From IMG/VR virus record IMGVR_UViG_2859793810_000009: a stretch of DNA of 12,066 nucleotides, one strand, 5' to 3'. The position numbers and the translations under genes are program-made. Position 1 is the stretch's first letter, and each line of letters opens with the position of its first letter. Below the pieces are notes generated by a model that saw nothing but the letters and a program-made list of their open reading frames with translations, did no database searches and was not told the origin of the DNA. Shown here in pieces: positions 11,626 through 12,066 of the stretch. Source of the DNA: a virus. Taxonomy: Duplodnaviria > Heunggongvirae > Uroviricota > Caudoviricetes.

Positions 11626-12066
11626 ATGCTTATTGGCTATGTACGCGTATCAACAAATGACCAGAATACCGATCTACAACGTAATGCGTTGAACTGTGCA
11701 GGATGCGAGCTGATTTTTGAAGACAAGATAAGTGGTACAAAGTCCGAAAGACCGGGGCTGAAAAAACTGCTCAAGACATTATCGGCAGGCGACACACTGG
11801 TTGTCTGGAAGCTGGATCGGCTGGGGCGCAGTATGCGGCATCTTGTCGTGCTGGTGGAGGCGTTGCGCGAACGAGGCATCAACTTTCGTAGTCTGACTGA
11901 TTCAATTGATACCAGCACACCAATGGGACGCTTTTTCTTCCATGTGATGGGTGCCCTGGCTGAAATGGAACGTGAACTGATTGTTGAACGAACAAAAGCA
12001 GGACTGGAAGCTGCTCGCGCACAGGGACGAATTGGCGGTCGCCGTCCCAAACTTTCACCAGAATAA
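11626..12066 (+). CDS. Serine site-specific DNA invertase (Gin/Pin/Hin/Cin family), catalytic domain only, ends at a TAA before the DNA-binding domain
   Basis: The translation MLIGYVRVSTNDQNTDLQRNAL...TLVVWKLDRLGRSMRHLV...GRIGGRRPKLSPE* carries the resolvase/invertase catalytic signature with the active-site Ser in YVRVST. An ATG at 11626 is preceded by a GGGGG Shine-Dalgarno (the ORF track starts at an upstream TTG at 11605). The stop falls about 40 codons short of the usual 185-190 aa, where the C-terminal helix-turn-helix normally sits. Confidence 0.8.
   Translation: MLIGYVRVSTNDQNTDLQRNALNCAGCELIFEDKISGTKSERPGLKKLLKTLSAGDTLVVWKLDRLGRSMRHLVVLVEALRERGINFRSLTDSIDTSTPMGRFFFHVMGALAEMERELIVERTKAGLEAARAQGRIGGRRPKLSPE

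Follow-up and report, generated by a model that had tools for sequence, protein, structure and literature searches.

The DNA-invertases Pin of Escherichia coli, Gin of phage Mu (PDB 3uj3, 4m6f) and Hin of Salmonella (PDB 1hcr) belong to one subfamily of small serine recombinases, and the closest known relatives of the gene discussed here are the intact pin genes of E. coli K-12 prophage e14 and of E. coli EC20017429. Their products are 184 amino acids long and contain a resolvase-type N-terminal catalytic domain (PF00239) followed by a C-terminal helix-turn-helix (HTH_7, PF02796; residues 138–181). Gin and Hin carry a corresponding C-terminal three-helix domain for their gix and hix half-sites, and in Pin this domain positions the enzyme at its 26-bp crossover sites. 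The catalytic domain of small serine recombinases needs the DNA-binding domain for targeting, as studies of gamma-delta resolvase fragments, the Hin peptide and zinc-finger recombinases have made clear. In the working pin loci (K-12 e14, EC20017429 and AH19B041) an inverted pair of crossover sites lies 1.8 kb apart and flanks tail-fibre and tail-fibre-assembly genes; the right-hand site, TTCTCCCAAACCAACGTTTATGAAAA, precedes the pin ATG by 54 nt. Pin dimers bind these two inverted pix sites, and inversion of the tail-fibre segment between them switches the phage's host range. In the Gin/Hin/Pin/Cin family a Fis-dependent recombinational enhancer sits in the 5′ part of the invertase gene itself.

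The 12,066-nt stretch of DNA analysed here (the window) ends with a gene of this kind, called pin′ below, that stops after 146 codons and lies divergently beside the type III secretion effector gene ipaHb (Table 1). Very probably pin′ is a pinE-type pseudogene inactivated by a TAA in place of the Gln147 codon, and the crossover sites that should accompany it have been replaced by ipaHb, so that the locus is unable to invert and the orientation of ipaHb is fixed. A single C>T change of the CAA codon to TAA ends translation immediately before the three helices of the DNA-binding domain. The two crossover sites are missing along with the native upstream region of pin, and ipaHb with its MxiE-regulated promoter region lies in their place; with a truncated recombinase and no sites for it, the locus cannot invert anything, ipaHb included.

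Table 1. Features at the right end of the window (nucleotide positions in the window; position 1 is its first base)
Feature	Position	Strand	Basis
Tail-fibre N-terminal-domain gene	7421–8710	+	Pfam PF08400/PF14301 for the 7421–9300 region; phiP27 tail-fibre match
DUF4376 gene	8755–9300	+	Pfam PF08400/PF14301 for the 7421–9300 region
ipaHb (= ipaH2610, class 5), divergent from pin′; encodes a 608-aa E3 ubiquitin ligase, a type III secretion effector	9301–11127	-	Pfam, NCBIfam, RefSeq name, size
ipaHb upstream regulatory region	11128–11607	-	Inverted-repeat and motif scans; published MxiE box; conserved class-5 upstream region
MxiE-box-like site	11503–11519	-	Lies within the palindrome at 11487–11522
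Last upstream nucleotides homologous to working pin loci, with AGGGGGA (likely ribosome-binding site)	11608–11625 (18 nt)	+	blastn against L004, L005 and L006; alignment
pin (pinE-type) serine DNA-invertase pseudogene, 5′ part; codons 1–146 from the ATG at 11626, and premature TAA	11626–12066	+	Translation, Pfam, identity to intact pinE
Premature stop TAA; CAA (Gln147) in intact orthologues	12064–12066	+	DNA alignment; translations of the full 555-nt frame

The gene pin′ amounts to the 5′ three-quarters of a pin gene. Its product (MLIGYVRVST...GRIGGRRPKLSPE, also written with its end as AQGRIGGRRPKLSPE) contains the catalytic domain, the E-helix and the GGRRPK segment. Pfam finds a single domain in it, PF00239 over residues 3–135 (E=1.4e-51), and no match to HTH_7 (PF02796); NCBIfam holds no Pin-specific model, and every match to its models is far under the respective cut-off. 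Of the first 146 residues, 142–143 are identical to those of Pin from e14 and the intact prophage, among them the YVRVST motif around the Ser10 nucleophile and the GRIGGR motif, and at 94.4–96.3% nucleotide identity over 455–459 nt the gene qualifies as an orthologue of e14 pinE. The recombinational enhancer may persist in pin′, since its 5′ coding sequence is about 95% identical to that of working pin genes. The initial annotation, which was made from the window alone, described an intact-looking catalytic domain that ends at RRPKLSPE, roughly 40 residues short and without a C-terminal helix-turn-helix; this was accurate, the shortfall against the 184-aa Pin being 38 residues.

The TAA is the last codon of the window, whose final 6441 bases match Shigella flexneri CP026788.1 (locus L010) exactly, so that the sequence downstream can be read there. 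The stop codon differs from the intact genes solely by CAA>TAA, one C>T transition, and the frame after it stays open for 37 codons (WAQAGRLIASGVSRQKVAIIYDVGESTLYKRFPARVI, then a stop), identically in 10 of 10 S. flexneri loci. Those 37 residues by themselves match HTH_7 (E=6.4e-9). The whole 555-nt frame is collinear with intact pin and interrupted by one internal stop, as a pseudogene made by a nonsense mutation would be. With CAA>TAA as the only difference at this codon and the helix-turn-helix remnant continuing in frame, the lesion is a single nonsense mutation at Gln147, and neither a frameshift, a sequencing error nor the end of a naturally short enzyme. The initial annotation had allowed for an out-of-frame continuation beyond the end of the window and proposed downstream extension and translation as the way to find it; the extension did locate the missing segment, directly behind the stop in the same frame.

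When the stop is read through, residues 1–182 align to Gin of phage Mu (PDB 3uj3; E=1e-91) with no gaps, and the 52-residue DNA-binding peptide of Hin (PDB 1hcr) aligns to pin residues 140–182. The comparison with these two proteins, also suggested in the initial annotation, shows that pin′ ends seven residues into the Hin-type peptide; those 7 of 52 residues all lie ahead of the helix-turn-helix, and none of the three helices of the DNA-binding domain is left in the translated product. Because small serine recombinases need their C-terminal domain, the 146-aa product is expected to be inactive as an invertase, as had been supposed. Measured against the Gin/Hin/Pin/Cin family as a whole, pin′ has the catalytic domain and lacks both an HTH_7 domain in the same polypeptide and a flanking pair of crossover sites; pinE pseudogene is the most fitting label for it.

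The surroundings of pin′ resemble those of the intact gene in some ways and differ from them in others. Intact pin, like pin′, follows the tail-fibre genes at a prophage's right end, and the pin of EC20017429 adjoins the same chromosomal gene, yfhH. Unlike e14 and EC20017429, in which codon 147 is CAA and HTH_7 is translated, the pin′ locus has neither the 1.8-kb tail-fibre segment nor the pix sites nor the native upstream region, and has ipaH there instead. No match to either 26-bp site was found in the window with up to three mismatches allowed, nor any match to the crossover core AAACCNNSGTTT, and a search around ipaH for the generic core AAACC..GTTT located no crossover site. When up to five mismatches were allowed and 6 kb were searched on each side, none of the ipaH–pin′ loci had a pix site, whereas every intact locus has its pair. 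A search for long inverted repeats between positions 3000 and 12066 yielded only the IS2 ends, the palindrome in the MxiE region and short pairs at chance level, and Rfam and tRNA scans of the whole window found nothing.

By blastn, homology with working pin loci begins 18 nt before the pin′ ATG, and the sequence to the left of this point is unrelated to them. This breakpoint indicates that the ipaHb cassette replaces the invertible segment and does not lie inside one; ipaHb and its regulatory region are found where the tail-fibre segment that inverts, the crossover site on its right and the upstream region of pin would otherwise be. There is no sign that ipaH could ever invert. In each of the 21 genomes with a layout that was read (18 Shigella and three enteroinvasive E. 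coli, EIEC), ipaH lies on the strand opposite to pin′, and comparison across these 21 found no alternative orientation of the ipaH segment. The initial annotation had held that the effector's orientation is fixed because the invertase is inactive. The orientation is indeed fixed, but the stop codon is not what fixes it, as no inversion system is left around ipaH; the stop is one of several independent reasons.

The effector gene itself is readily identified. Its product has the N-terminal LRR_TTSS (PF12468) and C-terminal NEL (PF14496) domains of the IpaH family, scores 563.9 bits against the NCBIfam model NF046045 (IpaH_Shig; cut-off 550), and is named IpaHb in RefSeq. The window gene agrees with the 1827-bp size of ipaHb listed in Table 1 of PMC3299695; the ipaHb/ipaH2610 class 5 naming follows PMC3299695 and PMC9046306.

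Class-5 ipaH genes share a conserved upstream region of about 491 nt (PMC9046306). In the window, the region upstream of ipaHb contains a perfect 16-bp palindrome (11487–11522; AATGTACTGTTTTTTT-cttt-AAAAAAACAGTACATT), which also scores as a terminator-like hairpin and on the ipaH strand includes GTACTGTTTTTTTAAAG, about 380 nt ahead of the ipaHb start codon. The site is two mismatches away from the MxiE-box consensus. Its position roughly fits the functional MxiE box and the long 5′ UTR (about 331 nt) published for ipaHb (PMC3299695). We noticed no published discussion of a MxiE box that lies inside a perfect two-way palindrome. A sigma-70-like hexamer pair is present upstream of pin′ at 11505–11534, though such matches occur at chance rate in this region.

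A tract of 15 C residues (11572–11586) also lies in the ipaHb–pin′ intergenic region, 39 nt ahead of the pin′ start codon. Its length is 7, 13, 14, 15, 17, 18, 18, 23 and 34 in different S. flexneri genomes and 6–7 in the S. sonnei, S. dysenteriae and EIEC loci, and EIEC RMDEC465 carries an IS110-family insertion at this position. Either the tract is truly hypermutable or the homopolymer is read differently by different sequencing platforms; no function is evident for it.

The truncated gene is widespread. The exact 146-aa protein has been recorded from 550 contigs of S. flexneri, and the GenBank "DNA-invertase" entries of S. flexneri 301 and 2457T (AAN44106.2 and AAP17930.1) are 100% identical to the pin′ product. 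A sister allele with the same TAA, recorded from 381 contigs, is found in S. sonnei and S. dysenteriae (including Sd197); it and the EIEC genes have R50 and E80 where S. flexneri has K50 and A80. Codon 147 is TAA in 18 of 18 Shigella loci (ten from S. flexneri and eight with the S. sonnei/S. dysenteriae allele, all collected by exact protein match, a procedure that hides variants) and in all three EIEC loci translated (VL40, RMDEC465 and O121 201805972). RefSeq annotates these three as "pinE, site-specific DNA recombinase, internal stop", a pseudogene; they have the same gene, stop and locus as pin′. A fourth EIEC genome, VL7S7, has a full-query match annotated as pinE and was left out of the translated set. 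The layout is constant in the loci read, with ipaH on the minus strand and pin′ on the plus strand, followed by yfhH, yfhB and tadA.

That pin′ is a pseudogene is not new, given the RefSeq flag in EIEC and the presence of its 146-aa product in GenBank since the first S. flexneri genomes. Tominaga, Ikemizu and Enomoto reportedly described in J Bacteriol in 1991 a "defective pinF" of S. flexneri, a pin homologue related to e14 pin that did not complement hin; that description fits the present gene, and we treat the identity as a lead only. Taken alone pin′ carries little weight, being one more inactivated gene in a Shigella prophage remnant and an ordinary relic, consistent with the extensive gene decay and IS expansion of Shigella genomes. 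It is more useful as a marker, since the identical nonsense codon occurs at the same site beside ipaHb in S. flexneri, S. sonnei, S. dysenteriae and EIEC. We infer that the TAA arose once, before the element spread among the Shigella and EIEC lineages; one shared nonsense codon at one chromosomal site points to an ipaHb island that was defective by the time it spread or was inherited.

The frame of codons 1–146 is undamaged across three Shigella species and EIEC, and alignment to Gin shows that the dimer-forming E-helix is kept, both of which would suit a truncated catalytic domain retained for another role, for example as a poison subunit with the Gin-type invertases of incoming Mu-like or P1-like phages, or in regulation of another kind. 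This seems very improbable to us. No second disabling mutation was found within codons 1–146 in any genome seen, these loci having been collected by exact protein match, but the lineages are so close (pS = 0.027 between the S. flexneri and EIEC alleles) that further damage within 441 nt is not expected, and the divergence is too small for an undamaged frame to mean selection. On the S. flexneri branch there are two amino-acid changes against three silent ones, and one of the two, E80A, falls at a Glu shared with the sequence of the Gin structure. The native pin upstream region has been replaced, and the second ipaHb copy described below keeps a mere 95 nt of pin, so the gene is dispensable to the cassette. 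A more specific form of the proposal, that Shigella and EIEC express and retain a catalytic-domain-only Pin, which pairs with Gin/Pin-type invertases of resident or incoming phages such as SfMu, is equally doubtful, as the one observation in its favour, the undamaged 441-nt frame, would be expected by chance in such close lineages; were it true, a Pin deficient in DNA binding would disturb tail-fibre switching in those phages.

Several GenBank records name the 146-aa product simply "DNA-invertase", as if it belonged to a clade of functional enzymes of that length, an outcome that would have overturned the initial annotation. We consider such a clade very unlikely and have rejected it. The in-frame HTH_7 remnant behind the stop marks the short form as a descendant of a 184-aa gene; 184 aa is also the length of the protein that represents the 90%-identity cluster, and one 184-aa member occurs on at least 1000 contigs. 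Residues 1–146 need a separate DNA-binding domain for targeting, and there are no crossover sites present to act on.

A sequencing or assembly error that hides a gene intact in the organism, or a frameshift that puts the helix-turn-helix in another frame, had also been named as a possible source of the short reading frame, and the window alone, ending exactly at the stop, is compatible with either. Such an error can be dismissed: the TAA is present in 18 independent Shigella assemblies produced by a variety of technologies, among them Sanger-era 2457T (AE014073) and Sd197 (CP000034), and in the three translated EIEC assemblies, the exact products have been recorded from the hundreds of contigs mentioned above, and a displaced helix-turn-helix is contradicted by the remnant being in the same frame as the catalytic domain.

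The remnant beyond the stop has itself begun to change. Compared with three intact genes it has P155S, Glu168 in place of Val or Ile, and a C-terminal ARVI in place of AGDK or VGDK; Glu168 adjoins the recognition helix, just ahead of it, and the aligned residue in Gin is Leu. Among lineages (compared over positions 6442–6555 of L022, S. sonnei 53G, of L019 and L023, S. dysenteriae, and of L021) there is an R>K change in S. dysenteriae, an I>S change in one genome and a 3-nt insertion (STFLYK) in S. sonnei 53G. These changes fit decay after inactivation. A count of synonymous and non-synonymous changes carries no information on relaxed selection, with just five differences between the S. flexneri and EIEC alleles and a helix-turn-helix region that is also the more variable part among intact genes. 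Low-level read-through of the UAA to give some active full-length Pin, for which we found no support beyond the 37 open codons, has a negligible chance of being correct in view of the missing target sites, the Glu168 next to the recognition helix and the drift of the remnant between lineages.

The pinE pseudogene forms the right end of a decayed, IS-riddled prophage, the "ipaH island" beside yfhH/tadA in S. flexneri. The tail-fibre and DUF4376 genes of Table 1 are the last phage genes before the ipaH cargo, and by blastn the shared phage module ends near position 9142. The tail-fibre DNA resembles that of phage phiP27, and the prophage is a decayed phiP27-like one; in the collection searched no sequenced phage has ipaHb next to pin, and only the tail-fibre part matches phiP27-like phages. 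Further leftward lie a gene for tail-fibre assembly, a tail-fibre gene interrupted by IS2, a DUF2612 gene, a baseplate fragment, IS600 and an integrase fragment. The IS2 element (5036–6349) has 32-nt imperfect terminal inverted repeats (5036–5067 and 6318–6349) and divides the tail-fibre gene into 4128–5114 and 6331–6849; an IS600-type element at about 1573–2837, with orfB at 1616–2437 on the minus strand, adjoins the phage-integrase fragment at 919–1575. This pattern is typical of IS-driven prophage decay in Shigella.

The DUF4376 reading frame abuts the ipaHb stop, ending one base before it. It encodes 181 aa here, against 207 aa with a 180-nt gap before ipaHb in VL40, and in other S. flexneri genomes it is called as two frames of 169 and 59 aa or of 121 and 59 aa; these differing lengths suggest that the 3′ part of the gene has variable frameshifts.

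The tail module at 2837–9142 (baseplate J, DUF2612, tail fibre, assembly protein, tail-fibre N-domain protein and DUF4376) is present at 97–99% identity in EIEC CFSAN029787 (L008), where it is followed after a breakpoint near 9142 by sitABCD, an iron/manganese transporter, and not by ipaHb–pin′. Since the same module leads into sitABCD in one genome and ipaHb–pin′ in others, the right end of this one prophage bears alternative cargo, and the pin fragment rides on the cargo end as a passenger. In two other E. coli genomes (one is FDAARGOS_944, L007) a second copy of ipaHb lies next to pgl and shares positions 9134–11720 with the window. It comprises ipaHb, the whole of its upstream region and no more of pin than the first 95 nt, which are annotated as a partial DNA invertase; the presence of these 95 nt beside the second copy means that the ipaHb duplication carried a piece of pin along, and the fragment helps in tracing how the cassette was duplicated.
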